Assembly (NCBI GenBank): GCA_963706575.1
Contig: CAVPNL010000001.1
Coordinates: 463,208-527,207 of the forward strand
Source of the DNA: an uncultured delta proteobacterium
Lineage (GTDB): Bacteria; Desulfobacterota; Desulfobacteria; Desulfobacterales; JAHEIW01
Direction of reading: 5' to 3'
DNA length: 64,000 nucleotides
A program made the translations under genes and the position numbers. This document shows positions 1-57,037 of this stretch, piece by piece. The notes beneath the pieces were generated by a model. The model saw only the letters and a program-made list of their open reading frames with translations, was not told the DNA's origin and made no database searches. The stretch's first letter is position 1. Every line of letters starts with the position of its first letter.

Positions 1-1896
1 CGCGCCTTCCTGGACCACTTTCACTGTGAGGGATACTGCTTCTTTGCTAAGCACCTGTCTGCCTGATTTGGGTTCCTCTGAAATTTTGAATTCAGGAATT
101 TCAATCTTACTATCCGGAATGCCGCCTATTTTTCCCTGCAGGTGGTTAACCGCCTCAACAGCAGCTGAAATTAATGCGGCATAATCATCCACGATTCGGG
201 TAACCATGCCGACATCTGCGGCTTCTTCAACCCCGAGCGGCCGGCCCAGACAAATCATTTCATGAAACAGAGCGGCACCCTGGGGCCATTTGCGGTAGGG
301 CACTACACAGCCGCCGATCCCCGGCAGGATCCCCAGCATGATTTCGGGGAACTGAAAGCTTGCGTTTTTCGTAGCGACTATCGCGTGACAGCGGATGGCC
401 ACTTCCAACCCGCCGCCAAGGGCAAATCCGTTGACGGCCGCCACCACGGGTCTTTGCATTTGATCCATATAAATCTGGACATTGGCGCAATCTCTGGCAT
501 ACTGGGCCGAAGCTCGGGCATCTCCGAGCATTTCCGGAAATTTGCCGATGTCAGCCCCTGCTGAAAAAGCGGCTGTTCCGTAACCGGTGATGACAAATCC
601 CTTGACCGCCGGGTCGACTTCGAATTCCTTGAAAACGGACAGGATTTCGTCTGTCAGCTCTTCGTTGAGGGCATTCATGGCCTGCGGACGGCGGATGGTA
701 ATCACCTTGACGCCGTCGATATCATCTACCAGGACGAAGCGCTTGAAATCCTGATATGTTCCAAGCGCTTGCTGCGGCATCGGAAATCCCGGTCGTTCTG
801 ATTGAAAGCGGTCCATGATCCGCTTGACTTCATCTTCCCCCAGTTCCCGCATCAGATCCAGCGGCCCTTTGCGAAACCCCAGGGCTACCTGACAACCGAA
901 GTTGAGATCGGCTTTGGTTCCGATCCCGCGGTCGATAATATCGAAAGACTGTGAGAACAGGATGCCCAGCAGGCGGTCACGGACGGCCGACTTTATGTCT
1001 TGCGGAACTTCCACCGGGCTGCCGGGGCGGTGCGTGAGCCAGCGATCCACCGACGCCAGAATGGAGGCGGGCAGGTAATGGGTGCCTTCTTCCATCTGCA
1101 GGCTGTTGGTTTCAATGATAATCGGATTTCCGTTGGTCATGTTCATGACAAAAAATGGTCCGGCAAAGACGAATTCTTCGGCGACTTTGTCAATCTGGCC
1201 GGCGGTTGCCTGATCCAGTAAGTAGGCGGATTCGTTGCACCAGTTGTCAAAGATGCGGTTCAGTATAAAACAGATGGCGTTGTCGGTAATGATGGGTGCT
1301 TTGCCGGTATTGGCAAAAAACCAGAACAGGTAATCCAGGGTCTCCTGGCTGCCTTTTTCCCAGGCGATGACCTCAACCGGAAGGCTTCTCCAGGCCGGCG
1401 CAAAAAAGTGGGTGATGGAGGTGCGCTGCGGGTTTTTCATATGGCAAAAGATTCTGTCAGCCGGGATTGAGGAGGTGTTTGAGGTGATGATGGTATCGGC
1501 ACTGACAATATTTTCAACGGTTTCAAAAATTTTTTGTTTCAGCGGAATGGATTCGGTGGCAGCTTCGATGACCAGCTGGCAATTTTTAATCTGCTGGTAG
1601 TCGGTGGTATAGACGATATTTTCGCGAACTGCGGCTGCTTTTTCGGGCTTCAGCTTCTTTTTGTCGATGGCCTTATCCGTGTATCCGGCAATACGCTGTT
1701 CCGCCAGTTGGAGCGGCTTCTCAACAACATCCACCAGATACAGCTTGCTGTTCGGAATGGCGCTTTTCAAATAATAACCGATATCCGGACCGATGGTGCC
1801 GGCGCCGATGACAGCGATTTCATCCGGCAGCGATCTTGAAGGCTCAATCAGCAAAGGGTTAAATGCCGTTTGATAGAGTTTTTTTTCAGCGTTCAT
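1..1896 (-). CDS. 3-hydroxyacyl-CoA dehydrogenase / enoyl-CoA hydratase fusion (IaaP-like); 3' end runs off the window
   Basis: Manually translated; missing from the ORF track because it is open at the edge. MNAEKKLYQ... AVIGAGTIG (Rossmann), VIEAATE, SNTSS, THFFAPA, then a crotonase domain (RRPQAMNALN, FSAGADI, VNGFALGGGLE). AAGGA RBS before the ATG at 1896. Confidence 0.9.
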   Translation of the reverse strand, partial: MNAEKKLYQTAFNPLLIEPSRSLPDEIAVIGAGTIGPDIGYYLKSAIPNSKLYLVDVVEKPLQLAEQRIAGYTDKAIDKKKLKPEKAAAVRENIVYTTDYQQIKNCQLVIEAATESIPLKQKIFETVENIVSADTIITSNTSSIPADRIFCHMKNPQRTSITHFFAPAWRSLPVEVIAWEKGSQETLDYLFWFFANTGKAPIITDNAICFILNRIFDNWCNESAYLLDQATAGQIDKVAEEFVFAGPFFVMNMTNGNPIIIETNSLQMEEGTHYLPASILASVDRWLTHRPGSPVEVPQDIKSAVRDRLLGILFSQSFDIIDRGIGTKADLNFGCQVALGFRKGPLDLMRELGEDEVKRIMDRFQSERPGFPMPQQALGTYQDFKRFVLVDDIDGVKVITIRRPQAMNALNEELTDEILSVFKEFEVDPAVKGFVITGYGTAAFSAGADIGKFPEMLGDARASAQYARDCANVQIYMDQMQRPVVAAVNGFALGGGLEVAIRCHAIVATKNASFQFPEIMLGILPGIGGCVVPYRKWPQGAALFHEMICLGRPLGVEEAADVGMVTRIVDDYAALISAAVEAVNHLQGKIGGIPDSKIEIPEFKISEEPKSGRQVLSKEAVSLTVKVVQEGA

Positions 1897-1990
1897 GGCG
1901 AGCATTCCTTTCCGGTAAAGTTGGGTTCAATTTATATCATTATTCGCAAAAATAAAGTAAAGAAACTGAAATAAAGCGCAAGATAATTTC

Positions 1991-2031
1991 CTTGACACGT
2001 TTTTGTATACCGTATACAAAAGTGTGTCAAG
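1991..2031. promoter_or_regulatory. Divergent promoter with central operator TGTATACCGTATACA (2004-2018)
   Basis: 41-bp near-perfect palindrome cttgacacgtttttgtataccgtatacaaaagtgtgtcaag with a TTGACA -35 hexamer on each strand, between divergent genes. Confidence 0.8.
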
Positions 2032-2232
2032 TTGGTGTAAACACCCATTTCTGAAAAGCTGGCGGGCGCATTCATTGCCTCAGCCGTTTTGCATTTTTTG
2101 CGATCGTAAAGTCACAATTACACGCACGGTTTGAGATTTTGCGAGATTATGCATATCCATTCTTGCGATTCCATTAAAACTCCACAAAAATATTATTGGC
2201 AATAGCAACACCAGTAAAAAAGGGGACATACC

Positions 2233-3813
2233 ATGAAAGTTTTAGTTAGTGACAATCTCGGAGAAGCTGGCATTCAGATGTTTGAAGAAGAAGCGGGATT
2301 TGAAGTGGATGTAAAAACCGGTCTTGAGCCTGATGAACTCAAGAAAATCATCGGAAACTATGATGCGCTGGTGATTCGCAGTGCTACCAAGGTTACGGAA
2401 GAGCTCCTGGAAGCGGCTGAAAAACTCAAGGTGGTGGGGCGGGCCGGGATCGGGCTGGATAATGTCGATATACCGGCTGCTACGAAACGGGGCGTTCTGG
2501 TGATGAATACGCCCACCGGTAACGTGGTAACCACCGCGGAGCATACGATTGCAATGATGATGGCGCTGACCCGCAATATCCCCTGGGGCACTTCGACGTT
2601 AAAAGATGGAAAATGGGAAAAGAAAAAACTGCAGGGACGTGAAATTTATAACAAAGTAATCGGTATCATCGGCTTAGGTAAAATCGGGTCCATTGTCGCT
2701 GACCGTGCCCGCGGGTTAAAGATGCAGGTAATTGTTCACGATCCCTATATTCCGGATGAGCAGATTGAAAAGGCCGGTTTTGAAGCGGTGTCTGTAGAAG
2801 ATTTATACCGCAGAGCAGATTACATCACGGTGCATGTGCCTAAATTAAAGGATACCCTGGGACTCATTAACAAAAGAGCCTTCGATCAAATGAAAGACGG
2901 CGTCATGATCATCAACTGCGCCCGCGGTGGAATTGTCGATGAGGCTGATTTGAACGAAGCCCTGAAATCTGGCAAGGTGGCCGGCGCTGCTCTGGATGTG
3001 TTTGAGAACGAGCCCCCCGGAGTTTGCCCGCTGTTTGAAATCGACCGGGTAATCTGCACGCCCCATCTGGGCGCTTCGACCCTGGAAGCCCAGACCAATG
3101 TGGCCGTTATGGTGGCGGAACAGATCATTGCTTATCTAAGAGATGCAACGGTTATCAATGCCGTCAATGTTCCGCCGGTCAGTGGCGATTTGCTTGAAAA
3201 ACTGAACCCCTATTTAACCCTGGCAGATCGTATGGGCTGTTTGCTGGCTCAGCTTTCACAGGGGGCAGTGAAAGAGATTTTGATCGAATATGCCGGTCAT
3301 TTTGACGACCTGGATCTGTCTCCGGTCACCACGGCAGTTTTAAAAGGGCTGATGACCCCCATGATTAAAGACGATGTCAACTTTGTCAACGCGCAGGTTC
3401 TGGCGAAGGAACGCGGAATTAAGATTACAGAAGCCAAGATTACCGAGTCCGAAGAATATGTAAATTTGATTACCGTCAATGCGGTTTCCGAGGAAGGTAA
3501 AAACAAAGTTGCCGGAACGATATTCGGACGGAAAAATCCAAGGGTGGTCAACATTAACAATTTTCGCCTCGAATTGGAGCCGGTGAATCGTTTTGTCTTG
3601 ATCCACAACCATGACAAACCCGGTGCCATCGGCAGTATCGGAACCCTTCTGGGAGAGAACAATATCAACATCAGCCGGATGCGGCTGGGCCAGGAAGAGG
3701 GCTCCGACAAGACCATGATATTTCTGCGGACCGATACACCGATACCTGAAGATGTGATTGAAAAAATGAGAGCATTGCCGCTGATGATCAGCGTGGCATC
3801 GTTTGAGCTCTAA
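2233..3813 (+). CDS. serA: D-3-phosphoglycerate dehydrogenase (with ASB and ACT domains)
   Basis: RAGIGLDNVD, GLGKIG, NCARGG, TPHLGAST; C-terminal HDKPGAIG ACT domain; 526 aa. Confidence 0.92.
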   Translation: MKVLVSDNLGEAGIQMFEEEAGFEVDVKTGLEPDELKKIIGNYDALVIRSATKVTEELLEAAEKLKVVGRAGIGLDNVDIPAATKRGVLVMNTPTGNVVTTAEHTIAMMMALTRNIPWGTSTLKDGKWEKKKLQGREIYNKVIGIIGLGKIGSIVADRARGLKMQVIVHDPYIPDEQIEKAGFEAVSVEDLYRRADYITVHVPKLKDTLGLINKRAFDQMKDGVMIINCARGGIVDEADLNEALKSGKVAGAALDVFENEPPGVCPLFEIDRVICTPHLGASTLEAQTNVAVMVAEQIIAYLRDATVINAVNVPPVSGDLLEKLNPYLTLADRMGCLLAQLSQGAVKEILIEYAGHFDDLDLSPVTTAVLKGLMTPMIKDDVNFVNAQVLAKERGIKITEAKITESEEYVNLITVNAVSEEGKNKVAGTIFGRKNPRVVNINNFRLELEPVNRFVLIHNHDKPGAIGSIGTLLGENNINISRMRLGQEEGSDKTMIFLRTDTPIPEDVIEKMRALPLMISVASFEL

Positions 3814-3965: not shown

Positions 3966-5789
3966 GTGAGCAAGAGAAGATTATTACTGGGAAATGAAGC
4001 CATCGCGCGCGGGTTGATCGAAAGCGGATGTACCATTGCAACATCTTATCCGGGGACGCCGGCATCCGAGATTCTTGCCGCCGTGGCCTATTTTCAAAAC
4101 GAAGAATCGCTTTCCATGCATACCCAATGGGCGGTTAACGAAAAAGTCGCCTTCGAGATTGCCTATGCCGGGTGCCAGACCGGGCTGCGTGCCGCGGTCA
4201 GCATGAAGCAAGTCGGTTTGAATGTGGCTTCCGATCCGCTCATGAGTGCCGCTTATATGGGGATCAATGGCGGGTTTGTTTTGATCAGCGCCGATGATCC
4301 CGGACCCCACTCTTCACAAACTGAGCAGGACAGCCGGCTGATGGCCATGTTTGCCAAGATACCGGTGCTGGATCCGGATTCACCCCGTCAGGCCAAAGAA
4401 CTGATGGGGGTTGCGTATGAAATATCTGAATCCTTTAAAACCCCCGTGATGGTGCGGCCCACCACCCGGGTGTGCCATTCCAGGCAGGATATTTCGCTGG
4501 GCTCCATTCCGAAAAACAAACGCCGGGCGCATTTCGAAAAAAATCCGGCCCGCTGGGCTGCGACCCCTAAATTCCGACTGCAACTTCACAGGGAGTTGGA
4601 AGAAAAGCTGGCCGCCATTGCAAAGTATCGGCCGACAGCCCCCAAAAAGCTGAATCGCAAAGCCAAATCCGGCAAAGCAATTATTGCTTCGGGTGTGGCG
4701 GCCGCTCATACCAAAGACATTTTAAGAGAATTGAAAATCTGGTCAAAAATTCCTTTTTATCAGGTCATTCAACCGTTTCCGCTGCACAGCAAATTTATTG
4801 AGCATATTATCGCCAGCTATGAAGAGGCTCTGGTTATTGAAGAAACCATGGGCGTGATTGAGATGCAACTGGCCGACCGTTATCGCATCAAAGGCAAATT
4901 ATCGAATACGGTGCCAAGGGTTGGCGAACTTAGCCCTGAAAAGATAGAGGAAATTGTCAGTAAATTTGTCGGACTAAAATCCGAAGCGGTTACCATAAAA
5001 TCTATCCCTGGCAGACGCCCGACCCTGTGCCCCGGATGCCCGCATCGCGCCAGTTTTTTTGCCATAAAAAAAGCCGCTCCCAGAGGGATTTACACCAGCG
5101 ATATCGGCTGCTATACGCTGGGCCTCAATCTCGGAGCCGTCGATACGGTGCTCTGTATGGGCGCTGCCATCAGTCAGGCCGCCGGATTTTATCACGCCTA
5201 TAAAAATGAAGAAAAACGGCCGGACATTGTGGCCACCATCGGTGATTCAACTTTTTTCCATGCCGGCGTACCGGCTCTTATCGATGCGGTCGTCCAGAAT
5301 GTCGGCTTTGTGCTGGTGATCCTTGATAACCGCACCACTGCCATGACCGGCAATCAACCCACGCCGGCCACCGGCCATGGGGCCTGCGGCGAGTCCACTG
5401 AGACCGTTGATATCGAATCACTGGTTCGCGGATGCGGTGTTAAATTTATCCGGGAAAGCAATCCTTACGAACTCAAGGAGTTTACGGCTCTTCTTAAAAA
5501 GGCCGTTAAATACAGCCGCAAAAACGGACCCGCCGTGGTTATTTCAAGATATCCGTGCGTGCTGCACCGGGCCAGGCAGGGCGATACCGGGGAATATATA
5601 CCGGTCGAAGTGAGTGAAAAGTGCGACGGTTGCGGTTATTGCATCAAGCATTTTGAATGTCCGGCCCTGATCTATCATGATGACAAAGAAGAAAAACACG
5701 TCAGCATCGATCCGATTCTGTGCACTTCATGCGGCGTGTGTTTGAATGTCTGTCCCAAAGGGGCATTCGTTGAAAAAACTAGGGAGTAA
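3966..5789 (+). CDS. iorA: Indolepyruvate:ferredoxin oxidoreductase alpha subunit
   Basis: LLGNEAIARG, YPGTPASE, MKQVGLNVASD, DDPGPHSSQTEQD, LCPGCPHR, GDSTFFH (TPP) and two C-terminal 4Fe-4S motifs; GTG start. Confidence 0.92.
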   Translation: MSKRRLLLGNEAIARGLIESGCTIATSYPGTPASEILAAVAYFQNEESLSMHTQWAVNEKVAFEIAYAGCQTGLRAAVSMKQVGLNVASDPLMSAAYMGINGGFVLISADDPGPHSSQTEQDSRLMAMFAKIPVLDPDSPRQAKELMGVAYEISESFKTPVMVRPTTRVCHSRQDISLGSIPKNKRRAHFEKNPARWAATPKFRLQLHRELEEKLAAIAKYRPTAPKKLNRKAKSGKAIIASGVAAAHTKDILRELKIWSKIPFYQVIQPFPLHSKFIEHIIASYEEALVIEETMGVIEMQLADRYRIKGKLSNTVPRVGELSPEKIEEIVSKFVGLKSEAVTIKSIPGRRPTLCPGCPHRASFFAIKKAAPRGIYTSDIGCYTLGLNLGAVDTVLCMGAAISQAAGFYHAYKNEEKRPDIVATIGDSTFFHAGVPALIDAVVQNVGFVLVILDNRTTAMTGNQPTPATGHGACGESTETVDIESLVRGCGVKFIRESNPYELKEFTALLKKAVKYSRKNGPAVVISRYPCVLHRARQGDTGEYIPVEVSEKCDGCGYCIKHFECPALIYHDDKEEKHVSIDPILCTSCGVCLNVCPKGAFVEKTRE

Positions 5790-5872
5790 GCATTAAATAG
5801 TAAGCAGTAAGCACCATAGAGTAGGCAGCCGTAAATGCAAACCGGCAAACTGCTTACTGCCTATTGCTTACT
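5785..5872. repeat. Inverted heptamer tandem repeat (AGTAAGC / GCTTACT)
   Basis: agtaagcagtaagc ... tgcttactgcctattgcttact between iorA and iorB. Confidence 0.65.
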
Positions 5873-5888
5873 ATTATACGGGGGATAT

Positions 5889-6449
5889 ATGAGCAAGACA
5901 GTTAAACAGCAAATTCTGATCAGCGGAGTAGGCGGGCAGGGGGTTCTGTTTGTTACGGGCCTTCTGGCAGAAGCGGCCATCAGTAAAGGATTGGCGGTAT
6001 TTACCTCGGAAACTCACGGTATGGCTCAACGCGGAGGAACGGTTGTGTCCCATTTTAAGGTCGGCGATTTCTCGAGCCCTTTGATCCGGCCATTTAAGGC
6101 AGACGGGTTGCTGGTATTAAAGGACGAAAATATCGCCCAGCACGGGTCATTTCTAAGAAAGGGCGGCTGGGCGGTGGTTAATAGCGGTAATGATTTGAAA
6201 ATTGACAAAACATTAACGGCCAGCGGCATCGATGCGGACAAACTGGCCCAGGAAATCGCGAACCCGAAATCCGTTAATCTGATTATGCTGGGCTTTGCAC
6301 TGGCAAAGGCCGGCAAAAAAGGCGGGGGTCCAATCAATCTGTTCTGCACATTGACCGATATTAAGAAAGTTCTGCGCAAAAAATTCAGCAGCCGCAAGAA
6401 GCTGATAGATGCCTCCATTAAGGCCTTAGATACAGGCTATTATTTCTGA
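5889..6449 (+). CDS. iorB: Indolepyruvate:ferredoxin oxidoreductase beta subunit
   Basis: GVGGQG, SETHGMAQRGG; start moved to the ATG at 5889 behind a GGGGA RBS. Confidence 0.9.
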   Translation: MSKTVKQQILISGVGGQGVLFVTGLLAEAAISKGLAVFTSETHGMAQRGGTVVSHFKVGDFSSPLIRPFKADGLLVLKDENIAQHGSFLRKGGWAVVNSGNDLKIDKTLTASGIDADKLAQEIANPKSVNLIMLGFALAKAGKKGGGPINLFCTLTDIKKVLRKKFSSRKKLIDASIKALDTGYYF

Positions 6450-7702
6450 TTTTGATACTTCTTCTTGACAAATTCTAGTGATTCATCAATAGCGGTTAAT
6501 GTTAGATTCAAGTCTTCTTGTGTATGCCGATAACAGATATATGCGTGATGATAAGGCGTGAAGAAAAATCCCTTTCGAATCATCTGTGTATAAAAATCTT
6601 TTCGTTTACCTTTATATGATCCTGATTCATCTTTTTTAAAAGTAATATAAAACATGGGTGCAATACCAGTGAGTTCGGCGCCCACGTCATGATTTTCTAT
6701 GATCTCCTGAATTTTTTCCATGAACCACTCACCTTTTTTCCATATCTCCGCCAAGACATTATCTCGTTCTAAAATTTCAATGGTCTTAAGCGCTGCAATA
6801 AAGGCTTCGCTGTTGGGGAAAAAAGTTGAAGAAATGAAGAGCTTTTCTGCAGCCGCCATCATAATATCCTTTTTACCGGTGACAACCGAAATCGGATACC
6901 CGTTGGCAATAGCTTTCCCTAAAACCGAGATATCCGGATATACACCGTAAAGGGCTTGGGCGCCGCCGAGAGACAGTCTGAAACCCGTTCGGATTTCATC
7001 ATAGATCAGAACAGCTCCGTATCTGTCACTCAGGTTCCTAACCCCTTCAAGGAATCCAGATTTGGGTATTTGCATTTTTTGATGGTTGGGGTGGCCGAAT
7101 GGTGTCATTATGATAGCTGCAGTTTCGTCACCATGAGTAGCCAGAAGGTCTTCAAGTTGCTTAAGGTTATTGTACTCGAATTCAAACACGTCTTCATAGA
7201 ATTTTGATGGAATCCCACCTTTCATCTCGACACACCAGTCATGCCAGCCATGATAACCACATCGCATGACTTTAATCCGGTTCGTGTAGGCTCTTGCAAT
7301 TCGAATACTTGCCGTTGTTGCATCGGATCCGGTTTTTAAAAAAATACTCATTTCAGCGCAAGGGACAAGCTCAGCGATTTTTTTCGCCAAAACATTTTGA
7401 TATTTTTGCGTAAGCGAGAAGCAAAAACCCTTTTCTTTAATCTGTTTATAAACTGCCTCATCTACCTCTTTTTCACGGTAACCGAGGATAATGGGGCCGT
7501 AACCACACAGAAAATCAATAAATTCATTGCCGTCCACATCATAAAGCCGGCATCCTTTACCACTTTCAAGAAAAATGGGATATTCGCCAGCAATGAAATC
7601 GGTGGGTTTTCTAGCCCCCAGAACCCCACCAGCTATAAGCGCACATGCCTCTTCAAAAAGCTTTAGGCTATTTGATATATTGAGCTTGTCTGTCTCTTTC
7701 AT
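6440..7702 (-). CDS. Class III PLP aminotransferase, glutamate-1-semialdehyde-aminomutase-like; resembles 3-aminobutyryl-CoA aminotransferase (Kat)
   Basis: DVDGNEFIDF, KTGSDAT, GYHGWHDW, DEIRTGFR, LGKAIANG (PLP Lys). The Kat resemblance is from recall of motifs (GFCFSLTQ, SSTFFPNS, PYHHAYICYRH). Confidence 0.82.
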   Translation of the reverse strand: MKETDKLNISNSLKLFEEACALIAGGVLGARKPTDFIAGEYPIFLESGKGCRLYDVDGNEFIDFLCGYGPIILGYREKEVDEAVYKQIKEKGFCFSLTQKYQNVLAKKIAELVPCAEMSIFLKTGSDATTASIRIARAYTNRIKVMRCGYHGWHDWCVEMKGGIPSKFYEDVFEFEYNNLKQLEDLLATHGDETAAIIMTPFGHPNHQKMQIPKSGFLEGVRNLSDRYGAVLIYDEIRTGFRLSLGGAQALYGVYPDISVLGKAIANGYPISVVTGKKDIMMAAAEKLFISSTFFPNSEAFIAALKTIEILERDNVLAEIWKKGEWFMEKIQEIIENHDVGAELTGIAPMFYITFKKDESGSYKGKRKDFYTQMIRKGFFFTPYHHAYICYRHTQEDLNLTLTAIDESLEFVKKKYQNQK

Positions 7703-48237: not shown

Positions 48238-48311
48238 ATGATCTCCCTTGTGGGGCTTTAGAAGAGATTTGAGATTAGAATGTGTGAGTCTGTCTTGGCC
48301 AGGACCTGTCG

Positions 48312-48571: not shown

Positions 48572-48973
48572 ATGGCAATTTTCAAGAAATTTGATCATAT
48601 CGGCGTTGTTGTCGAAGACCTCCGGAAAGCTATGGATGAGCTTTCGGATTTCTTTGGTTTAGAGTGTCAGGAGGTAATGGAAATTAAAGATGCCGGAATT
48701 CGAATCGCCTTTTATCCTTTGGGCTCCGGGCAAATGGAGCTTATTGAATTTCAAAAACCGATAGCGGATGTTGATCCGATCGTCACCCGCCCAGGAGCCG
48801 GAGTTCAGCACGTTGCCTTTCAGGTTGATGATTTTCAACTGGCATTAGAGACGCTGACCGCTAAAGGATTGAAGCTGGTCAAAGGCTTTCCGAGAAGCGG
48901 TGCTCACGGACAGGTGGCCTTCTTTTATCCGACCGAGGGGTTGGATCTGTTGATAGAGATATGTGAATCTTGA
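48572..48973 (+). CDS. VOC-family protein, methylmalonyl-CoA epimerase-like
   Basis: DHIGVVV, IAF, ELIE, GVQHVAF.V, PRSGAHG.VAF, LIE. Confidence 0.85.
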   Translation: MAIFKKFDHIGVVVEDLRKAMDELSDFFGLECQEVMEIKDAGIRIAFYPLGSGQMELIEFQKPIADVDPIVTRPGAGVQHVAFQVDDFQLALETLTAKGLKLVKGFPRSGAHGQVAFFYPTEGLDLLIEICES

Positions 48974-50351
48974 GGTTCCGATAAAAAGTCCAATGGAAGC
49001 AAAACGCAAATTCTGGAACGAAGACGTTGAAACACTTTCTGCGCAAGACATGAAAGCGCTCCAATGGAAACGGCTAAAAAAGCAACTGCGCTATAATTTT
49101 GATAATTCGATCTATTATCGCGAGGAAAAATTCCAGAAAGCCGGGCTGACCCCTGACGATATTCAAACCTTCGAAGATTTCCAAAAGATACCGCTGTTAA
49201 CCAAAGATGAGCACCGGCAGATACAGGTAGATTCCATTCAGCAATTCGGGCATCCCTATGGTTTGATCACCTGTGCACCCCGGGATAAAATTGTTCGAAT
49301 CAATTCAACCAGCGGCACCACCGGCCAGCCCACCCTGTATACGTTGACCCAAAATGATATCAACGTGCTCAACGAGATGCATTGCCGCAAGTACTGGCGA
49401 ACCGGTCTGAGACCGGGCCATATTGTACTGCAGGCGCTTTCTTTGAGCATGTTTACCGGCGGACTTCCCCTTTCCGATGGCCTGCAATCTATGGGGCTTT
49501 GCGTGGTGCCTGTGGGAATCGAGGGTGGAACCCGACGGGTGCTCGATTTTACGCTTTTAACGAAGCCCGACGTTTTGATCGCCACCCCGTCGTTCGGCGA
49601 ATACCTTATCGAACAGGCCCCCAAACTTATCGGCAAAGACGCTCGCGAGCTGGGTATTCGGTGGTTTTATTGTGCCGGTGAGCCCGGAGCCGGGATTGCT
49701 TCTTTGCGCAAAAAGTTGCAGGAGGGTTTCGGCGCGAAAGTGTTTGACCATACCGGCGGCGGACATGCCTTTCATGGGATATCATGCGAAACCGAGCCGT
49801 ACCCTGGGATGCACTTTGTTTCCGCCGATCACTGTATTCTGGAACTGGTTGATGCGGAGACCAAAGACCCTATTGAGATCTCTGACGGGGCCATGGGCGA
49901 AATGGTGTTCACCTTTATTGGGTGGGAAGGCGGACCGTTTATGCGCTATGCGCTGGGCGATTTGATCCAAATATACACCGCAACCTGCAGTTGCGGCTGG
50001 CCGGAGATGCGGTTTAAAATTTTGGGGCGGGCGGATGACATGCTCATCATCAAAGGCGTCAATTTCTACCCATCGGCGCTAAAAGGACTGGTCAGTGAGC
50101 TTGAGCCCCGCACCACCGGAGCGCTGCGAATTATTCTGGAACAACCGGGCCCTCTGGTTAAGCCGCCGCTTAAAATTCGCATCGAGCATGGTTTGCAGAA
50201 TTCGAACAATGAAGACAAACAGCAGCTAATGAAAGAACTCGGCGAACTTATAAAAGATCGACTGCGTATCAACCCGGATATCGAACTTGTTGAACCGTTT
50301 TCCCTGCCGCGGGAATCCGGCAAAACTTCTTTGATCGAAATAAAAAAGTGA
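48963..50351 (+). CDS. Phenylacetate-CoA ligase (PaaK) family CoA ligase, copy 2
   Basis: RINSTSGTTGQP, ATPS, AGEPG, RYALGD, GRADDMLIIKGVNFYP; start uncertain (GTG 48963 or ATG 48993). Confidence 0.9.
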   Translation: MNLEVPIKSPMEAKRKFWNEDVETLSAQDMKALQWKRLKKQLRYNFDNSIYYREEKFQKAGLTPDDIQTFEDFQKIPLLTKDEHRQIQVDSIQQFGHPYGLITCAPRDKIVRINSTSGTTGQPTLYTLTQNDINVLNEMHCRKYWRTGLRPGHIVLQALSLSMFTGGLPLSDGLQSMGLCVVPVGIEGGTRRVLDFTLLTKPDVLIATPSFGEYLIEQAPKLIGKDARELGIRWFYCAGEPGAGIASLRKKLQEGFGAKVFDHTGGGHAFHGISCETEPYPGMHFVSADHCILELVDAETKDPIEISDGAMGEMVFTFIGWEGGPFMRYALGDLIQIYTATCSCGWPEMRFKILGRADDMLIIKGVNFYPSALKGLVSELEPRTTGALRIILEQPGPLVKPPLKIRIEHGLQNSNNEDKQQLMKELGELIKDRLRINPDIELVEPFSLPRESGKTSLIEIKK

Positions 50352-50379
50352 AATTGGCTTGCCGATTAGAACATCAAAC

Positions 50380-50435
50380 GTAGGGCCGGCCTCTGTGCCG
50401 GCCATCATGAAAGCCGCCGCAGAGGGCGGCCCTAC
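50380..50435. repeat. GTAG...CTAC REP-like doublet
   Basis: gtagggccggcctctgtgccggcc ... gccgccgcagagggcggccctac. Confidence 0.7.
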
Positions 50436-50484
50436 TTCTGAAGGCGGATATTTGAAACGCGTTTAATGCCTGAAACAAGTCGCT

Positions 50485-52239
50485 ATGGAAGCCAAAGCAA
50501 AGACAGACAAAGTGCTAACATCCATTATCCAGTGCCGCTTGAAGGCCATCACGGAGGAAATGGGCTATACACTGTTGCGCACCAGCCGGTCCCCCATTCT
50601 CAATGAAGCCCGGGATTTTGTTACCGGTCTATATGATGCCAGGGGTCGAATGCTGGAGCAGGCGGAATATATTCCTGTGCTTGCTTTCGCAATTCAGCCG
50701 GTGTGCCAGAAGATCGTTGAATATTTCGGCAACGATATACACCCCGGCGATGTCATTTTACATAACGACGTATTTAGCGGTGGCAACCAGAATGCCGATG
50801 TGGCCGTATTCAAGCCCATTTTTCACAACGATGTCTTATTTGCCTGGGCAGCTGTGAAAGGGCATCAGGCCGATATCGGCGGTGCGGTAGCCGGCGGTTA
50901 TAACCCGGCTGCCCGTGAAATCTGGCAGGAAGCGCTGCGCATAACACCGGTTAAGGTTGTCGAGCAGGGGAAACTGCGGCGCGATGTATGGGATCTGATT
51001 TTTGCCAATATCCGGTATCCCATTGTGGCCGAAGACATCAAAGCCCAGATGGGTGCCTGTTCGGTGGGAGAAAGGCTGGTGAATTCGCTTCTGCAGCGAT
51101 ATGGCTTTGATCAATTGCGCAACCAGATTAAACTTCTGTTTGATTCGACTGAAAAAATGGTGCGCGCTGAAATCCGGCGGATTCCCGATGGAGAATATCG
51201 AGGCCAGAGCTGGATGTACTATGACGGTATTCATGACGGTTCCAGATTCAAGATAAACCTCACAATCACCGTTAAAAACGATGAGATTTATTTTGACTAT
51301 AGCGGTACGGACAAGCAAACTGAAGGGTTTGCCAACGCGCCACTGGGGGCCAGCATGTCAGCCGTGATTCTGACCTTTTTGATGTTAATCGATCCCGATA
51401 TCCCGCATAACGACGGTCTGTTGAGGCCATTGCACGTCCATATCCCGCCGGGAACCTTTTTGAACGCAAACTTTCCGGCGGCCACCACCTTTGGCAACAG
51501 CATCACCGGCCCCAATGCAGATGCCATCTTAAAAGCACTTGCAAAAGCGATTCCGCATAAAGTCACGGCAGGTTGGAATCGGATGCTGGCGTTGGCTGTA
51601 TCCGGCATTGATCCGCGTTCAAACCGTCCTTACGTGGATATTCTTTTTAATGCCCTGAAAGGAGGTTCGGGGGCGGTTGAGGGTTGTGACGGCTATGACC
51701 ATATTGGCTTGATTAACTGTGCCGGTGGAATACTGGCGCAGGATCCCGAAATGTTTGAGCTGCAGACGCCGAACCTGATTGCCAAACACGAATATGCGCT
51801 GGATTCGGCCGGTGCCGGACGATGGCGAGGAGGCCTGGGGGTAGAGACCATCATTCGATTTGGTGGTGAGAAATCCAAAGGCGTTGTATTTGGTGATGGG
51901 GTCGATGAAGAAACCCGGGCTTTCGGGCTTTTTGGCGGAAACATCGGCAGCATAAATGAGATGGAATTCAAATTTCCGGATGGCAGCCGACACCGGCCAA
52001 AATCCAAAGAGATCGTTTCCGATATACCCCCGGGGACGATTCTGCATCAGGTGGCCGGCGGAGGCGGCGGATACGGCAAACCGATCCTAAGACCGGCAGA
52101 GCAGGTCATACGGGAGGTGAGAAACGGCACCCTTTCATTGCGGAAAGCCAAGCAAGAATATGGTATCGTGCTCGATCCGATGACGATGGAACTAAAACAA
52201 ACCGAGACGGAACAGCTACGAGGAAAGAGTAAAAAGTGA
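50485..52239 (+). CDS. Hydantoinase B/oxoprolinase subunit, copy 2
   Basis: EEMG..L.RTSRSP, EARDF, HQADIGG, DSAGAGRWRGG, GGGGGYG.P. Confidence 0.92.
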   Translation: MEAKAKTDKVLTSIIQCRLKAITEEMGYTLLRTSRSPILNEARDFVTGLYDARGRMLEQAEYIPVLAFAIQPVCQKIVEYFGNDIHPGDVILHNDVFSGGNQNADVAVFKPIFHNDVLFAWAAVKGHQADIGGAVAGGYNPAAREIWQEALRITPVKVVEQGKLRRDVWDLIFANIRYPIVAEDIKAQMGACSVGERLVNSLLQRYGFDQLRNQIKLLFDSTEKMVRAEIRRIPDGEYRGQSWMYYDGIHDGSRFKINLTITVKNDEIYFDYSGTDKQTEGFANAPLGASMSAVILTFLMLIDPDIPHNDGLLRPLHVHIPPGTFLNANFPAATTFGNSITGPNADAILKALAKAIPHKVTAGWNRMLALAVSGIDPRSNRPYVDILFNALKGGSGAVEGCDGYDHIGLINCAGGILAQDPEMFELQTPNLIAKHEYALDSAGAGRWRGGLGVETIIRFGGEKSKGVVFGDGVDEETRAFGLFGGNIGSINEMEFKFPDGSRHRPKSKEIVSDIPPGTILHQVAGGGGGYGKPILRPAEQVIREVRNGTLSLRKAKQEYGIVLDPMTMELKQTETEQLRGKSKK

Positions 52240-52313: not shown

Positions 52314-52937
52314 TCACTTTGCTTTTTTGAGGTTCTTTTTCAGTCGTTCAAAATCTTGCGGGGTGTCGACATCAAAAAAACAGATCGGATCTTCCATTTC
52401 AACGCCTAACACCCGATCCGGGTTGTCATCGATCAATTGGCGGGCACCCATATCGCCTTTAATGCCCATCAGCTGGGTGTAAAAACGGCGCCTGAATATG
52501 GCGGGCGTTTTTCTTTTGCCCTGATAAATGGGAACGCATATGTCCTTTTCATCGGCCCAGAATCTTTCCAGCAAAACATTGATGGCCGCAGTGTTCAGCA
52601 TGGGCTGATCACCCAGTAGAAACATCACTGCCGGGTAATCGTCTTTAACCTTTGATAACCCGGTCTGAAGGGAAAGGCTTTGACCTTTTTCATATTGCGG
52701 GTTGATTGCGACCAGAAGCTTTGAGTGCTGTAATTTTTCACCCAGTGCTTGCAGGATTTTTTGATGGGCGTATCCTAAAACCAGCACAATTCTGTTAAGC
52801 TCGGATTTTAAAGCCGCATCGAGCACCCAATCAAGCAGGCACTTATCTTTTAGCCGCAAGAGTTGTTTCGGTTCGCCGAATCGTGTCGATGCACCGGCGG
52901 CTAAAATAATTCCGGCAGTTGGTTTTTCCTTCATCAT
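52314..52937 (-). CDS. mocA: Molybdenum cofactor cytidylyltransferase (MocA/YgfJ-like)
   Basis: ILAAGASTRFGEPKQL, LGDQP, GDMGAR, DVDTPQD. Confidence 0.85.
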   Translation of the reverse strand: MMKEKPTAGIILAAGASTRFGEPKQLLRLKDKCLLDWVLDAALKSELNRIVLVLGYAHQKILQALGEKLQHSKLLVAINPQYEKGQSLSLQTGLSKVKDDYPAVMFLLGDQPMLNTAAINVLLERFWADEKDICVPIYQGKRKTPAIFRRRFYTQLMGIKGDMGARQLIDDNPDRVLGVEMEDPICFFDVDTPQDFERLKKNLKKAK

Positions 52938-52941
52938 GCTG

Positions 52942-53277
52942 TTAGAAAATCATGGGGATATACCCCGCTTTAATGGAATCGGAAATTAAGGCGCCCACGT
53001 ATTCGACATTAAAGCCCAGCTCTTCAAGCTTGTCACTGGCACCGGATTTATCCGATAAAAATTTGCAGGCAATCGGCGTCTGGTATTCCAGCAATTCCGA
53101 GGCTGCCTGGATGACGTCTTCGTCTTCGCAAAGCAGATTTTCAAAAGGGCCGAAAAAGATGACTCTGACATTATCAACCCATTTATTTTTCTGAGCATTT
53201 TTTGCGTACAAAATGCCGGTCAGCGCTTTGTCCTTTTCTGCGGTCGAAATGATAACCATAACGTTGGATGACATCAT
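52942..53277 (-). CDS. DsrE-like small protein
   Basis: VIIST, VIFFGP.E, PIACK, VEYVG; AAGGAGG RBS. Confidence 0.75.
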   Translation of the reverse strand: MMSSNVMVIISTAEKDKALTGILYAKNAQKNKWVDNVRVIFFGPFENLLCEDEDVIQAASELLEYQTPIACKFLSDKSGASDKLEELGFNVEYVGALISDSIKAGYIPMIF

Positions 53278-53401
53278 AACCTCCTTGGTATTGAAAAATT
53301 TTCGCGGAATGTAACATAAGCGAATCCTTTTTTCTACACAACTTTTGACGCGTGATAACATTGTTTGATATACGAAGCTAAATCTTTAGGAGACAATCGA
53401 T

Positions 53402-54103
53402 ATGAGCTTTGAACATAAGAAATATCTTAACGCAACACCCATCCTCGATTCAGATTCAAAGATAATCATTAATTTTGCCATGTCCGCAATCAAAGATGCC
53501 GATGATGATCCGATTTCTAAGGCGATCAATCTGTATTATGCCGTCAGAGATGGAATCTGGTATGATCCTTATACCCCGTTTTACCTGCCGGAGCATTATC
53601 GTTCCAGCAACGTACTGAAAAGAGGACGGGCGTTTTGTATCGGTAAAGCCGGCCTGTTATGCGCTGTCGGCAGGGCCTGCGGCATCCCCACCCGGCTCGG
53701 TTTCGCCGATGTCCACAACCATCTGGCCACCCAGCAATTGATCGATTATCTGGGGTCCAATATTTTTTCCTATCACGGATTCATGGAATTTTATCTGGAC
53801 GGCAAATGGGTTAAAGCGACGCCGGCTTTCAACAAAGAGCTCTGCCGTAGAGCCAAGGTGACGCCGCTGGAATTCAACGGTCGCGAAGATTCGATATTTC
53901 AGCCTTACAATGAGGAAAAAAAATTATTTATGGAATACATAAGGGATCACGGAACCCATGCGGATATTCCGGTTGATCAAATCGTTGAGGCCTGGAAAAC
54001 GACATACGGTCAGGAGCGTGTTAGACGTTGGATTGCATCTTTTGAGAAATCCGGTGGAAAGCGCAATCGGAAATTTGAAAATGAAGACTGGGTGAAGGAT
54101 TAA
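53402..54103 (+). CDS. Transglutaminase-like family protein
   Basis: VRDGIWYDPY, FCIGKA (Cys), GIPTRLGFADV.NHL, HG, WVKATPAFN. Confidence 0.88.
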   Translation: MSFEHKKYLNATPILDSDSKIIINFAMSAIKDADDDPISKAINLYYAVRDGIWYDPYTPFYLPEHYRSSNVLKRGRAFCIGKAGLLCAVGRACGIPTRLGFADVHNHLATQQLIDYLGSNIFSYHGFMEFYLDGKWVKATPAFNKELCRRAKVTPLEFNGREDSIFQPYNEEKKLFMEYIRDHGTHADIPVDQIVEAWKTTYGQERVRRWIASFEKSGGKRNRKFENEDWVKD

Positions 54104-54145
54104 ATCAGAATACGAGATTACACTTGTTGAGGCTGAGAATCTGCG

Positions 54146-55165
54146 ATGAAAAAAGTAAAAGTCGAAAATGCGGTCGGAATGGTTCTGGTTCATGACATTA
54201 CGCGTATCATTCCGGGAAAATTTAAAGGGGTTGGCTTTAAAAAAGGGCATATCGTTAAAGAAAAAGATATTCCCGAATTGTTAAAACTCGGCAAAAAACA
54301 TCTGTATGTTTTGAATTTTACGGCAAACCATCTGCACGAAGATGACGCTGCTTTGCGTATTGCCCGAGCAATATGTGGAACGCAACTCCACTGGACAGAT
54401 CCGTCCGAAGGAAAATCAAACATTATCAGCCAAGCTGACGGCATTTTAAAAGTGAATCGCGCAGCGCTTTTAAAAATCAATAAACTAGGCAAAATTATTG
54501 TCTCGACGTTGAAAAATAATTTTCCAGTTCAAAAAGATCAAATTGTCGCCGCGACTCGAATCATTCCCTTGACGATAAATGTGAAGAAGATCGAACGATT
54601 GGAAAATATCGCCGAAAAGCAGCACCCGGTTATAAGCATCATGCCCTACCGGCAATTAAAGGTGGGGGCTGTGGTAACCGGCTCCGAGATTTATGACGGG
54701 ATCATTAAGGATGAATTTGATAAATATGTCGGCAAAAAGGTGAGTGCATACGGCTCCAGGATCATAAAAAAAATTCTGGTGACGGACAAGGTAGCCAGCA
54801 TTGCAAAGGCAGTCGCTGAACTCATAAACCTGGGTTGCGACCTTATTCTGACAACCGGTGGACTATCAGTGGATCCGGATGACGTGACGCGCCAGGGAGT
54901 TAAAAGAATCGGAGCGGAAATTGTGGCATACGGTGCTCCTGTTCTTCCGGGGGCCATGTTTCTGTATGCCAGATTGAAGGGCACGCCGATCCTCGGTTTA
55001 CCGGCCTGCGTCTACTACCATGAATCAACCATTTTTGATCTGGTATTCCCCAGGGTTCTGGCGGGAGACCGTATTGACAAAAACGAAATTGCAGAAATGG
55101 GACACGGCGGCCTGTGTCTGAATTGCGACCGATGCCAGTTTCCAGTGTGTCCGTTTGGGAAGTAG
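54146..55165 (+). CDS. Molybdopterin-binding protein (MoeA/MoCF domain) with C-terminal Cys cluster
   Basis: HDITRI, HEDDAA, VTGSE, TGGLSVDPDDVT, YGAPVLPGAM, GLPAC, GGLCLNCDRCQFPVCPFGK. Confidence 0.88.
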   Translation: MKKVKVENAVGMVLVHDITRIIPGKFKGVGFKKGHIVKEKDIPELLKLGKKHLYVLNFTANHLHEDDAALRIARAICGTQLHWTDPSEGKSNIISQADGILKVNRAALLKINKLGKIIVSTLKNNFPVQKDQIVAATRIIPLTINVKKIERLENIAEKQHPVISIMPYRQLKVGAVVTGSEIYDGIIKDEFDKYVGKKVSAYGSRIIKKILVTDKVASIAKAVAELINLGCDLILTTGGLSVDPDDVTRQGVKRIGAEIVAYGAPVLPGAMFLYARLKGTPILGLPACVYYHESTIFDLVFPRVLAGDRIDKNEIAEMGHGGLCLNCDRCQFPVCPFGK

Positions 55166-55288
55166 TATTGGAAAACTGGGTATTTGGTATTGGGTATTCG
55201 TTCGTTAAAAGGACTGAGTGCTGAGGACTGGGCGGCAGTACTGAATGGTCTTTTATAAAATATTAAGAATATTATGGAGGACTGAAAA

Positions 55289-56089
55289 ATTAAACTGAAT
55301 GAACTCATTGTGGCGGTCAAAGGAGCAGGGGAGATGGCCAGTGCGGTTGCCTGGCGGATTTATATGTCCAATATTCGTCGGATTCTGATGCTGGAGACCC
55401 CTTCTCCCCAAGCCGTGCGGCGGAAAGTTTCATTTTGCGAGGCAGTGCTTGACGGCAGCCAAAGCGTAGAAGGTGTCGAAGCGTGCATGGCGGACAATGA
55501 GACCGCCATTCGCGAGACCTGGACCCGGGGAAAAATTGCAGTCGTTGTTGACCCTGAATGGAAAATGCTTGATCACCTTAAGCCCCATGTAGTGATCGAC
55601 GCGATATTAGCCAAAAAAAACATGGGCACCCATTTGGACGAGGCGCCGCTGGTTATCGGACTCGGTCCCGGTTTTATTGCCGGGCAGGATGTCCATCTCG
55701 TCATCGAAACCAATCGCGGCCATAATTTGGGTAAAATTATGGCTTCCGGTAGTGCAGAGCCGAACACAGGGATACCGGGTCCCATCGGTGGCTATGCCGA
55801 AGAAAGGGTTCTGCGGGCCCCCTGCGACGGAGAATTTAAGGCCAGATGCGCAATCGGTGATCGAGTAAAAAAAGGCGATACGGTTGCAACAGTTGCGGCC
55901 GATACGGTCCAGGCAAAGATCGATGGGGTGCTGCGAGGGCTGATGCGTTCATCCTCACACGTTCGCCAGGGATTGAAACTGGGTGATATCGACCCCAGAG
56001 GAAATGTTGATTATTGCCACACGATTTCTGATAAAGCGCGCGCGATTTCCGGATCGGTGCTGGAAGCAATTCTGCGCCAATATAATTGA
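55289..56089 (+). CDS. yqeB: Selenium-dependent molybdenum hydroxylase accessory protein YqeB
   Basis: KGAGEMAS, AVRRKVSF.EA, DAILAKKN, GLGPGF, ETNRGH.LG, ERVLRAP, GDIDPR, ISDKARAI. Start uncertain (ATT 55289 after GGAGG; ORF track uses GTG 55310). Confidence 0.88.
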   Translation: MKLNELIVAVKGAGEMASAVAWRIYMSNIRRILMLETPSPQAVRRKVSFCEAVLDGSQSVEGVEACMADNETAIRETWTRGKIAVVVDPEWKMLDHLKPHVVIDAILAKKNMGTHLDEAPLVIGLGPGFIAGQDVHLVIETNRGHNLGKIMASGSAEPNTGIPGPIGGYAEERVLRAPCDGEFKARCAIGDRVKKGDTVATVAADTVQAKIDGVLRGLMRSSSHVRQGLKLGDIDPRGNVDYCHTISDKARAISGSVLEAILRQYN

Positions 56090-56125
56090 CGGGCACAATT
56101 CGATATGATTGTTTTTCTGAATAAT

Positions 56126-56228
56126 TTACCACAGAGTTCACAGAGGACACAGAGAAAAACTAAAATCTGTTATGGCTTTCGTTGTTTTTCAGCATAGATT
56201 CTCAGAGTTCTCTGTGCTCTCTGTGGTA
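56126..56228. repeat. Intergenic inverted short repeat (CACAGAG / CTCTGTG family), copy 2
   Basis: ttaccacagagttcacagaggacacagaga ... ctcagagttctctgtgctctctgtggta. Confidence 0.78.
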
Positions 56229-56257
56229 GATAAAAAAAAGTATTTTGGAACGCGGAA

Positions 56258-57037
56258 ATGACATCATTACGACATAGTTTGCAGCTAAACAAAGGCGGTG
56301 TAATCAGCCTGGTGGGCGCCGGCGGCAAAACATCGTTGATGTTTCGCCTTGCCCGTGAGCTGTCCAGACAGGGTGCTGCGGTGCTATCGACGACGACAAC
56401 CAAAATCTACACACCCCGCCGGAAACAATCATCTGTTGTAATGATCTCCGCGTCTGCCAGAGACCTCGCAATGGAAGCCAGAAAAATTTTAGGGCGAAAA
56501 CCACACATTTCAGCCGCTAGCCGGCTGATTCCTTTCCAGAACAAGTTGAAAGGATTCCCGCCTGAAACAATTGATGCCATCTGGCAATCCGGGGTTTTTC
56601 GCTGGGTTGTCGTTGAAGCGGATGGTGCCGCCGGCAAATCCTTAAAAGCGCCGGCTGGGCATGAACCCGTTATTCCGCAATGCACAAAATGGGTCATTGG
56701 AATTGTCAGCCTGGAGGCGGTCGGCAAACCGCTGACCGAAAAATGGGCATTTCGACCGCAGTTGGTGTCGAAAATAACGGGTCTGGCTCAGGGCGCATCG
56801 ATTACTGAATCTGCCGTTGCAGAAGTATTAACAAACGCAAACGGTATAATGAAAGGTTTTCCAGCGCAGGCAAAGCGCTTTGCATTTCTCAACCAGGCCG
56901 AATCTCAGGTCCGGCTGAAAGCCGGGCGGCGGATTGCCGAAATGATCTGTTCGCATAAGGCAGCCGGATTTACAGGCGTTCTGATCGGTCAAACCCTTTA
57001 CGAACCATATGTTAAGGAATATTATCCAGCAGATTGA
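56258..57037 (+). CDS. yqeC: Selenium-dependent hydroxylase accessory protein YqeC
   Basis: VGAGGKTS, STTTTK, VEADGAAGKSLKAPAGHEPVIP, LNQA. Confidence 0.88.
   Translation: MTSLRHSLQLNKGGVISLVGAGGKTSLMFRLARELSRQGAAVLSTTTTKIYTPRRKQSSVVMISASARDLAMEARKILGRKPHISAASRLIPFQNKLKGFPPETIDAIWQSGVFRWVVVEADGAAGKSLKAPAGHEPVIPQCTKWVIGIVSLEAVGKPLTEKWAFRPQLVSKITGLAQGASITESAVAEVLTNANGIMKGFPAQAKRFAFLNQAESQVRLKAGRRIAEMICSHKAAGFTGVLIGQTLYEPYVKEYYPAD

Follow-up and report, generated by a model that had tools for sequence, protein, structure and literature searches.

The 64,000-nucleotide stretch analysed here (the window, meaning its whole length) is the end of contig C1 of G000, a Desulfobacterota genome of 5.67 Mb (92% complete, 6.4% contaminated), and it carries an expanded relative of the iaa cluster for anaerobic indole-3-acetate (IAA) breakdown. 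Four gene runs in it probably form a GntR-repressed regulon for the anaerobic breakdown of tryptophan and IAA, in which the dehydrogenase IaaF is likely replaced by a biotin-dependent carboxyltransferase and a conventional acyl-CoA dehydrogenase. This replacement is the best-supported of our new claims, and we hold it with good confidence; every reaction named below is a proposal drawn from orthology and co-occurrence. Genomes are labelled G (G000 being the window's own), loci L and contigs of G000 C. The genes proposed to replace it are:

13120..14268, minus strand: conventional acyl-CoA dehydrogenase with a YEG motif, partner of the carboxyltransferase.
14498..16060, minus strand: biotin-dependent carboxyltransferase of the PccB/MmdA fold, with a subfamily-specific pocket.

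The hallmark of IaaF is GGG in place of YEG, and its physiological electron acceptor is described as unknown (PMC8360864). The window dehydrogenase was considered as IaaF and rejected, its motif being YEG and not GGG, and no IaaF ortholog was found in G000 (92% complete), where the best match to IaaF-type queries reaches 38-39%. In many relatives a GGG dehydrogenase sits between the CoA-transferase and GntR genes. We compared 80 related loci and searched whole genomes for 50 picked from these, 23 without and 27 with an IaaF-type dehydrogenase at the locus. The carboxyltransferase (at least 70%) and the YEG dehydrogenase (at least 71%) occur in the same 18 of the 50, outside which the best matches are 57% (a fragment) and 60%, respectively. 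An IaaF-type enzyme is present in 31 (29 by hits, and two with a frameshifted copy at the locus), the GGG motif being unchecked in four whose hit lies away from the locus. The IaaF-type enzyme and the pair are found together in none of the 50 genomes, and a single genome has neither.

The carboxyltransferase shows conserved pocket changes relative to the housekeeping copy, matches GcdA weakly, and is likely to be a subunit of a (2-aminobenzyl)malonyl-CoA decarboxylase. Biotin-dependent decarboxylation would yield 3-(2-aminophenyl)propionyl-CoA, which would then be oxidised to 2-aminocinnamoyl-CoA; we regard these two steps, taken jointly, as probable, and they would offer a route round IaaF. 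The likely acceptor of the carboxyl group would be a Na+ pump or a pyruvate carboxylase with genes outside the window, and energy conservation would be a likely motive of the replacement. Two things weigh against this reading: the genes for Na+-pump beta subunits (on C6 and C9) and for biotin carriers (on C15 and C6) are found only outside the window, and the 50 genomes were chosen by us, are mutually related and are mostly fragmentary. Fisher tests take no account of kinship among genomes, and we place no weight on them. Two near-duplicate Na+-decarboxylase beta loci (L117 and L118; C6:8001-16000 and C9:25001-33000) possibly reflect contamination or duplication.

On a quick mutase tree the state (IaaF or pair) changes six times, two of the changes being forced by strong branches, and both states lie inside one clade of Desulfobacula- and Desulfotignum-labelled loci. 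We also examined 19 further loci from the phylum, taken from 42 and chosen for long contigs: the GGG enzyme was seen in 12, a variant in one and none in view in six. The IaaF-free variant looks limited to Desulfobacterales-type genomes, because the carboxyltransferase was found in none of these 19.

The window genes that are orthologs or putative counterparts of the known iaa inventory are:

1..1905, minus strand: 3-hydroxyacyl-CoA dehydrogenase/enoyl-CoA hydratase fusion of 677 amino acids (aa), putatively in the IaaP role, extending 129 bp past the window start.
25812..27020, plus strand: class III CoA-transferase, putatively in the IaaL role (37% to the reference IaaL).
27853..30076, plus strand: small and large subunits of a B12 mutase, orthologs of IaaG and IaaH (52% and 54%, best genome hits; tree).
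35836..37074, plus strand: thiolase, IaaA ortholog (49%, against 28% for the next genome match).
37170..41150, plus strand: three-subunit Mo hydroxylase, putatively in the IaaIJK role, with the KGIGE motif kept.

Our proxy iaa reference, L086 (67% GC), carries in a single run a regulator, thiolase, ligase, lactamase A and B, GGG-type dehydrogenase, mutase, Mo enzyme, CoA-transferase and binding protein, to which we gave provisional Iaa letters, in part from gene order. It was found by a metagenome search with the iaaF primer printed in PMC8360864, and its lactamase A has 708 aa, against the 707 given for IaaC in PMC8453981. IaaA, C, E, G, H, I and K all find their best G000 match in the window (34-57%), with identities of 54% for IaaH, 52% for IaaG, 55% for IaaC, 57% for IaaE, 49% for IaaA and 48% for IaaK. 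An earlier note on this DNA had equated its gene inventory with that of the iaa cluster. Every gene it listed was found as an open reading frame (ORF) with the expected family match, and the equation holds for IaaA, C, E, G and H; it fails for the dehydrogenase, which is not IaaF, for the ligases, which are not IaaB orthologs, and for the binding protein, which was rejected as IaaM at 22% identity. Several points count against too close an identification. L086 is a metagenome contig and not strain EbN1, matching the iaaF primer exactly and leaving the forward primer unmatched; IaaB, IaaF and IaaM have no ortholog in the window; IaaK (47.9%, 747 bits) is nearly tied by a paralog (47.8%, 675 bits); IaaI reaches only 34% in the window and IaaJ matches paralogs elsewhere slightly better; and IaaL matches a paralog elsewhere at 39% versus 37% in the window. 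The position of the CoA-transferase is conserved in relatives.

The pocket motifs of the mutase match IaaH and differ from those of G000's own methylmalonyl-CoA mutase and of three paralogs, and a true methylmalonyl-CoA mutase was rejected on LFGGGGSG and LCSFDEA in the window versus HCQTSG and TNSFDEA; a separate enzyme with the canonical motifs is encoded on C6. No mutase above 46% came from a plasmid search. The closest relatives of the mutase (72-94% identity) belong to Desulfobacterales and other Desulfobacterota metagenome-assembled genomes. In a sample of 201 genomes of the phylum 43 carry the IaaH-type mutase and 54 carry bamA, which is found in 34 of the 43 mutase-positive genomes and 20 of the 158 others. 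The 34 genomes with both make it very likely that the pathway product is aromatic. The IaaH pocket, together with IorAB, linkage to TrpB2 and co-occurrence with bamA, points to indole-3-acetyl-CoA as substrate, so that the earlier note was too cautious in holding that the substrate cannot be read from sequence. Its proposal of a longer iaa-type pathway in a sulfate-reducer-type organism is supported: orthology, synteny and the mutase pocket all speak for such a pathway in this member of the Desulfobacterota, and for one that exceeds the Aromatoleum pathway in length, and the cluster genes recur together in related loci, as that proposal demanded.

In the proposed pathway, indolepyruvate would be converted to IAA-CoA by IorAB, or IAA to IAA-CoA by PaaK-type ligase 1; the Mo hydroxylase would give 2-oxo-IAA-CoA, whose ring an ATP-dependent lactamase would then open; and a CoA shift by the CoA-transferase would prepare for the B12 mutase, which would yield (2-aminobenzyl)malonyl-CoA. 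After the decarboxylation and oxidation described above, beta-oxidation would release acetyl-CoA and 2-aminobenzoyl-CoA. Orthologs of the hydratase/dehydrogenase fusion (68-84%) lie beside the cluster in G002, G004, G008, G009 and G025, and in four of five genomes tested it matches at 32-33% or not at all; it may fill the IaaP role, L086 ending before iaaP. Since the mutase occurs in 43 of the 201 phylum genomes, and in 34 of the 54 bamA carriers, the pathway is probably in common use for turning over tryptophan and indole, both in sediments and in digesters. Three sequencing runs contain at least one fifth of the sampled sequence words of the window, all of them estuary/sediment metagenomes; RNA runs contain small shares only of the stretch.

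The four runs are tied together by a palindromic operator, TGTATAC-N-GTATACA, with four sites in the window, each beside a perfect -35 box at the head of an operon. TTGACA stands just upstream of each site on the strand of the downstream run, the first site having one on either strand:

1992..2030: divergent symmetric promoter, TTGACA on either strand around the operator TTGTATACCGTATACAA (2003-2019).
16168..16198, minus strand: operator (16168-16184) and -35 TTGACA, heading the run from carboxyltransferase to transaminase.
25705..25735, plus strand: -35 TTGACA and operator (25719-25735) in front of the core run.
48312..48341, plus strand: -35 TTGACA and operator (48325-48341), heading the genes for the epimerase, ligase 2 and HyuB2.
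27115..27822, plus strand: GntR-family regulator by family match, the likely binder of the operator.

Four matches compare with a mean of 0.16 in shuffled sequence, none of 100 shuffles reaching four, and a repeat scan returned the inverted pair at 1996-2019 and 25719-25742. Across the 5.67 Mb of G000, six sites have at most one mismatch: the four in the window, one on C5, and one at C1:404037, which heads a paralogous cluster. In 141 loci we found 76 operator hits (a few duplicated by overlapping loci), 75 of which lie within 450 bp upstream of a cluster gene; many relatives have the operator upstream of the CoA-transferase, and L086 has it upstream of its GntR gene (one mismatch). The GntR protein of the window likely binds the operator and represses the four runs, and both arms of the cluster likely form one regulon, because the same palindrome and -35 box stand at four operon heads. 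Against an exclusive assignment, the motif stands at the head of the paralogous cluster and of other GntR loci as well, and a similar motif may be read by paralogous regulators. The operator is a direct handle for defining the regulon.

The run to the right of the first operator bears on how substrate might enter the pathway:

2233..3813, plus strand: SerA, phosphoglycerate dehydrogenase (over the TIGR01327 cut-off), beside TrpB2 in relatives.
3966..6449, plus strand: IorA and IorB, indolepyruvate:ferredoxin oxidoreductase (IorA over TIGR03336, IorB just under the NF004916 cut-off).

IorAB had been recognised in the earlier note, which missed serA and the four operator sites. SerA is the only full-length phosphoglycerate dehydrogenase found in G000, and its gene opens the iorAB run that follows the operator. 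TrpB2 depends on O-phosphoserine and has a high affinity for indole (PMC11917138). In 8 of the 43 mutase-positive genomes its gene is no more than about 25 kb from that of the mutase, a number that rises to 12 if 50 kb is allowed, and in the complete genome G067 the distance is 15 kb; among 17 TrpB2 neighbourhoods five have the order TrpB2-aminotransferase-iorBA, one has serA-TrpB2-iorAB-serC, and five have no such partner. We tentatively suggest that SerA could feed O-phosphoserine to TrpB2, so that free indole would enter as tryptophan.

A serious contender, if short of probable, is that SerA, SerC and TrpB2 serve tryptophan salvage only, without TrpA, the catabolic substrates being tryptophan and IAA and not indole; this touches the entry step alone. 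No trpA was detected in G000 (92% complete), where a single TrpB-type gene was found, and TrpB2 and SerA may therefore be anabolic. TrpB2 is present in 143 of the 201 phylum genomes, so that presence alone is uninformative, and 21 of 26 copies have no operator upstream; in the other five it lies within 400 bp, at divergent promoters possibly belonging to the gene on the opposite side. The 458-aa TrpB of D. anilini is abundant on all four substrates tested. Entry of indole as tryptophan is further weakened by the position of the G000 copy of TrpB2, which is outside the window, about 75 kb from the mutase and in the paralogous cluster, and by D. indolicum, for which oxindole, isatin and anthranilate are reported in connection with indole (PMC6221969). 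Salvage alone, however, would not lead one to expect TrpB2 to share its orientation with a class I aminotransferase and with IorAB, enzymes that consume tryptophan, or serA to lead the iorAB run behind the operator; and D. anilini has separate trpA/trpB genes yet also a TrpB2-sized gene two loci from iorA.

The paralogous cluster itself (C1:403208-441256; L082 and L083) lies about 25-60 kb upstream and is headed by the same operator. It encodes a different B12 mutase, a Mo enzyme with CoxG, a CoA-transferase 70% identical to that of the window, an epimerase, isochorismatase- and creatinase-type hydrolases, a carboxyltransferase, a dehydrogenase, IorAB, TrpB2 and SerC.

Between the first two operators lies a module that, on balance and with modest confidence, we suggest removes the nitrogen from 2-aminobenzoyl-CoA:

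6440..7702, minus strand: class III pyridoxal-phosphate transaminase, Kat-like (at least 70% in 31 of the 50 genomes).
7719..8867, minus strand: saccharopine/carboxyspermidine-dehydrogenase-like protein, adjoining the transaminase in relatives.
8934..11747, minus strand: HcrC-HcrA-like fusion (2Fe-2S and Mo subunits), with an ortholog in 31 of the 50 genomes.
12049..13050, minus strand: HcrB-like FAD subunit with a [4Fe-4S] insert.

What had been called a second Mo enzyme is present, and is more exactly 4-hydroxybenzoyl-CoA-reductase-like: the best PDB match of both the Mo and FAD subunits is 1rm6, which is that reductase. Cys123, 139, 147 and 156 of the HcrB-like subunit align with 1rm6_B, and since these [4Fe-4S] cysteines are kept the enzyme points to a reductase. 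It misses the TIGR03194 and TIGR03195 cut-offs (676 against 995, 255 against 405), and Glu726 of HcrA, a conserved catalytic residue of the Mo site, is Met in the window and in eight of nine orthologs and Leu in the ninth. A closer Hcr-like paralog at C1:279731 keeps the Glu. Five of the 120 closest homologs of the transaminase carry the JGI name 3-aminobutanoyl-CoA transaminase, and a 50%-cluster search returned no named members; it may be a beta-aminoacyl-CoA transaminase, and the saccharopine-dehydrogenase-like protein an NAD(P)H-dependent C=N reductase. The latter's gene adjoins the transaminase gene in three of five genomes tested and is absent from the two without the module. The Hcr-like enzyme and the transaminase occur together in 29 of the 50 genomes and singly in four. 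The 17 in which neither was found, including the single-contig G025, argue against a necessary role, and the module is dispensable on that account.

Ring-reduced 2-aminobenzoyl-CoA would be a beta-enamino or beta-amino thioester, which fits all three module enzymes. The chemistry we prefer, speculative as it is, would begin with a two-electron ring reduction to an enamine. NAD(P)H would then reduce the enamine to a beta-aminoacyl-CoA, from which the transaminase would make 6-oxocyclohexene-carbonyl-CoA, to be taken on by BamA. An alternative to this chemistry alone, about as likely in our estimate, is that the Hcr-like enzyme deaminates 2-aminobenzoyl-CoA directly to benzoyl-CoA, much as 4-hydroxybenzoyl-CoA reductase dehydroxylates, the transaminase and dehydrogenase-like enzyme clearing a side product. 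The PDB match is to that reductase; a '2-aminobenzoyl-CoA reductase' yielding benzoyl-CoA is stated for Azoarcus evansii (PMC4539516); and in D. anilini 4-aminobenzoate induces Hcr-like proteins for which the role of a deaminating reductase has been proposed (PMC7500099). Direct deamination, however, leaves unexplained the co-occurrence with a beta-aminoacyl-CoA-type transaminase in 29 of 33 genomes, and the loss of Glu726 (Met, or once Leu) also speaks against it. Genes for anaerobic 2-aminobenzoyl-CoA deamination and for strict-anaerobe indole use are not identified in the accessible parts of PMC4539516, PMC6221969 and PMC7500099, and the locus names candidates for both. The most elaborate combination, in which indole enters via SerA/SerC/TrpB2 and the iaa route, a biotin decarboxylase stands in for IaaF, and saves energy, and a Glu-less Mo reductase, imine reductase and beta-transaminase dearomatise 2-aminobenzoyl-CoA and bypass benzoyl-CoA reductase, is improbable as a whole.

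As to benzoyl-CoA reductase, bzdO passes its cut-off in 2 of 51 genomes, and among 18 AOR-family hits BamB could not be separated. Beside the bamA region, C1:320728-322908 encodes a BcrAD-type ATPase and an HGD-D subunit, neither of which reaches the cut-offs for benzoyl-CoA reductase; they may make up an atypical reductase or else a dehydratase. At L136:11201-12481 a reductive dehalogenase (over the TIGR02486 cut-off) and an OYE-type oxidoreductase lie near benzoyl-CoA pathway genes. A third mutase/epimerase/carboxyltransferase set lies at C1:244001-284000 (L111, L112) with two more Hcr-like Mo enzymes, one of them near another saccharopine-dehydrogenase-like gene and an MTTB-family methyltransferase.

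The window also carries duplicate lactamases and ligases, and an importer:

30180..34272, plus strand: ATP-dependent lactamase pair 1, HyuA1 and HyuB1 (37% and 31% to IaaC and IaaE).
34323..35696, plus strand: PaaK-type CoA ligase 1 (at least 50% identity in 47 of the 80 loci).
41296..43402, plus strand: A subunit of lactamase pair 2 (HyuA2), IaaC ortholog (55%).
43569..48318: Liv-type ABC transporter, livG and livF on the plus strand and livK, livM and livH on the minus strand; same module in G001.
48572..52239, plus strand: accessory module of an epimerase-like glyoxalase, PaaK-type ligase 2 and the B subunit of lactamase pair 2 (HyuB2).

The earlier note counted one lactamase pair in the iaa inventory and a second as an addition to it; it is the second that is orthologous to IaaCE (55/57% against 37/31%), HyuB2 grouping with IaaE in a tree. 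Most of the close relatives carry the pair 1 type (66 and 59 of the 80 loci), and an IaaCE-type pair occupies the pair 1 slot behind the mutase in 5 of the 19 further phylum loci. Because both types use this slot in different relatives, they probably do the same job, pair 1 likely doing that of IaaCE; separate substrates for the two were rejected as the main reading on the same ground, and the suggestion that the cluster serves several heterocycles accordingly finds little support. IaaB of L086 has no match in the window, and ligase 1 is likely an indoleacetate-CoA ligase that is not its ortholog. HyuA2 starts near 41296 and has a one-base frameshift (an extra base) near 41464-41465; related contigs in two runs lack this base, and the frameshift is likely an assembly error. 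In G001 pair 2, the ABC importer, the epimerase and the second ligase stand together as an intact module, and an ortholog of pair 2 was found in 2 of the 50 genomes.

The lactamases may cover a wider substrate range. For the regulon as a whole a different or wider set is conceivable, for example hydroxy- or halo-indoles, or else 2-oxo-tetrahydroquinoline lactams, with a substituent of the ring being taken off by the Hcr-like enzyme. We think this unlikely. Two ligases, two lactamases and an importer under one operator, ligases and binding protein that are not orthologs of IaaB or IaaM, and the paralogous cluster upstream all suit such a range; the two lactamase types, however, are interchangeable by position, the accessory module is in only 2 of the 50 genomes, and genomes of syntrophs and sulfate reducers widely carry the core, as would be expected if the substrate is a common one. 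Quinoline or nicotinate pathways were rejected, with nothing beyond family names in their support.

That left arm and core are unrelated modules landed on one contig is very improbable: C1 is rich in Mo enzymes, mutases and ligases, the strands are mixed and a 9.3 kb insert separates the arms, but the same operator heads both, left-arm and core genes are joined in one run in L023+L095 (a Desulfobacula-type genome), L017+L097 and L020+L098, and the carboxyltransferase/YEG pair and IaaF are mutually exclusive. Within positions 1..57037, described earlier as one supercluster, left arm and core thus hold together through the shared operator and the joined relatives; 16349-25650 is an unrelated insert between them. 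It encodes AKR, DUF169, dienelactone hydrolase, crotonase, MBL, PilZ, SDR, GNAT and DinB proteins, has no operator, and among the 80 loci only those of the closest relatives (L002, L003, L009 and L039) have its genes next to the mutase.

Further features of the window are the following:

52314..57037, mixed strands: Mo/Se maturation genes MocA, MoeA-like, YqeB and YqeC and two small passenger ORFs, recurring beside the cluster in relatives; no operator was found upstream of them.
57034-59489: MFS transporter, DUF6125 protein and a 194-aa unknown protein, which recur beside the cluster or TrpB2 in relatives and may belong to the cluster.
59623-63856: dynamin-like GTPase and YcaO-TPR protein, which have no relation to the cluster and close the contig.
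16349-17600: aldo/keto reductase over two overlapping ORFs, a probable frameshift.
11756-12051, 23882-24195, 28286-28426, 30059-30259, 32330-32552, 34265-34386 and 41159-41188: intergenic repeat families, with a 116-nt direct repeat (97%) and short GATTGCG/GATTTCG arrays, probably REP-like.

The window has no tRNA.

Considering known systems, iaa operons of sulfate reducers and strict anaerobes have already been predicted in D. anilini, NaphS2, D. indianensis and F. placidus (PMC8360864), and what is new here is the proposed replacement of IaaF, the Hcr module and the suggested entry of indole. Those operons are likewise strict-anaerobe and iaa-type, and are described as having IaaF with a dedicated electron-transfer flavoprotein; they correspond to the IaaF-type form seen in 31 of our 50 genomes. 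In the accessible part of PMC8360864 we found no description of the form without IaaF, of the operator or of the nitrogen-removal module, and in the open-access literature searched none of the IaaF replacement, of nitrogen removal by the Hcr module or of the indole entry; subscription iaa papers or supplements may cover some of the extra genes. The window transaminase and Kat are both HemL-like class III enzymes, likened through homolog names; unlike Kat, the former has no lysine-fermentation context, and a Kat homolog (60%) of unknown function has been noted in NaphS2 (PMC3149608). Indole salvage by TrpB2 is known as anabolic (PMC11917138), and the catabolic role suggested here would be a departure from it.

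The Hcr-like enzyme shares its [4Fe-4S] insert with HcrCAB of Thauera aromatica (1rm6), and differs in its fused C and A subunits, in Met for Glu726, in scores below the NCBIfam cut-offs and in linkage to transaminase and dehydrogenase-like genes. With the iaa clusters of Aromatoleum aromaticum and Azoarcus evansii the window has in common IaaGH, IaaA, IaaCE, a Mo hydroxylase, a class III CoA-transferase and a GntR regulator, and its operator resembles the sequence upstream of GntR in the reference cluster. In contrast to them it has no IaaF that we could find, a PaaK-type and not an IaaB-type ligase, an extra lactamase type, and a single operator shared by IorAB, SerA and the Hcr-like module.

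The closest parallel for the replacement of IaaF is the oxidation of glutaryl-CoA, for which there exist both a decarboxylating dehydrogenase and a non-decarboxylating dehydrogenase used with a Na+-pumping glutaconyl-CoA decarboxylase; strict anaerobes split the oxidative decarboxylation in this way to save energy. The carboxyltransferase and YEG dehydrogenase of the window would follow the same energy logic, with the difference that decarboxylation would come before oxidation and that the carboxyltransferase is PccB/MmdA-like.

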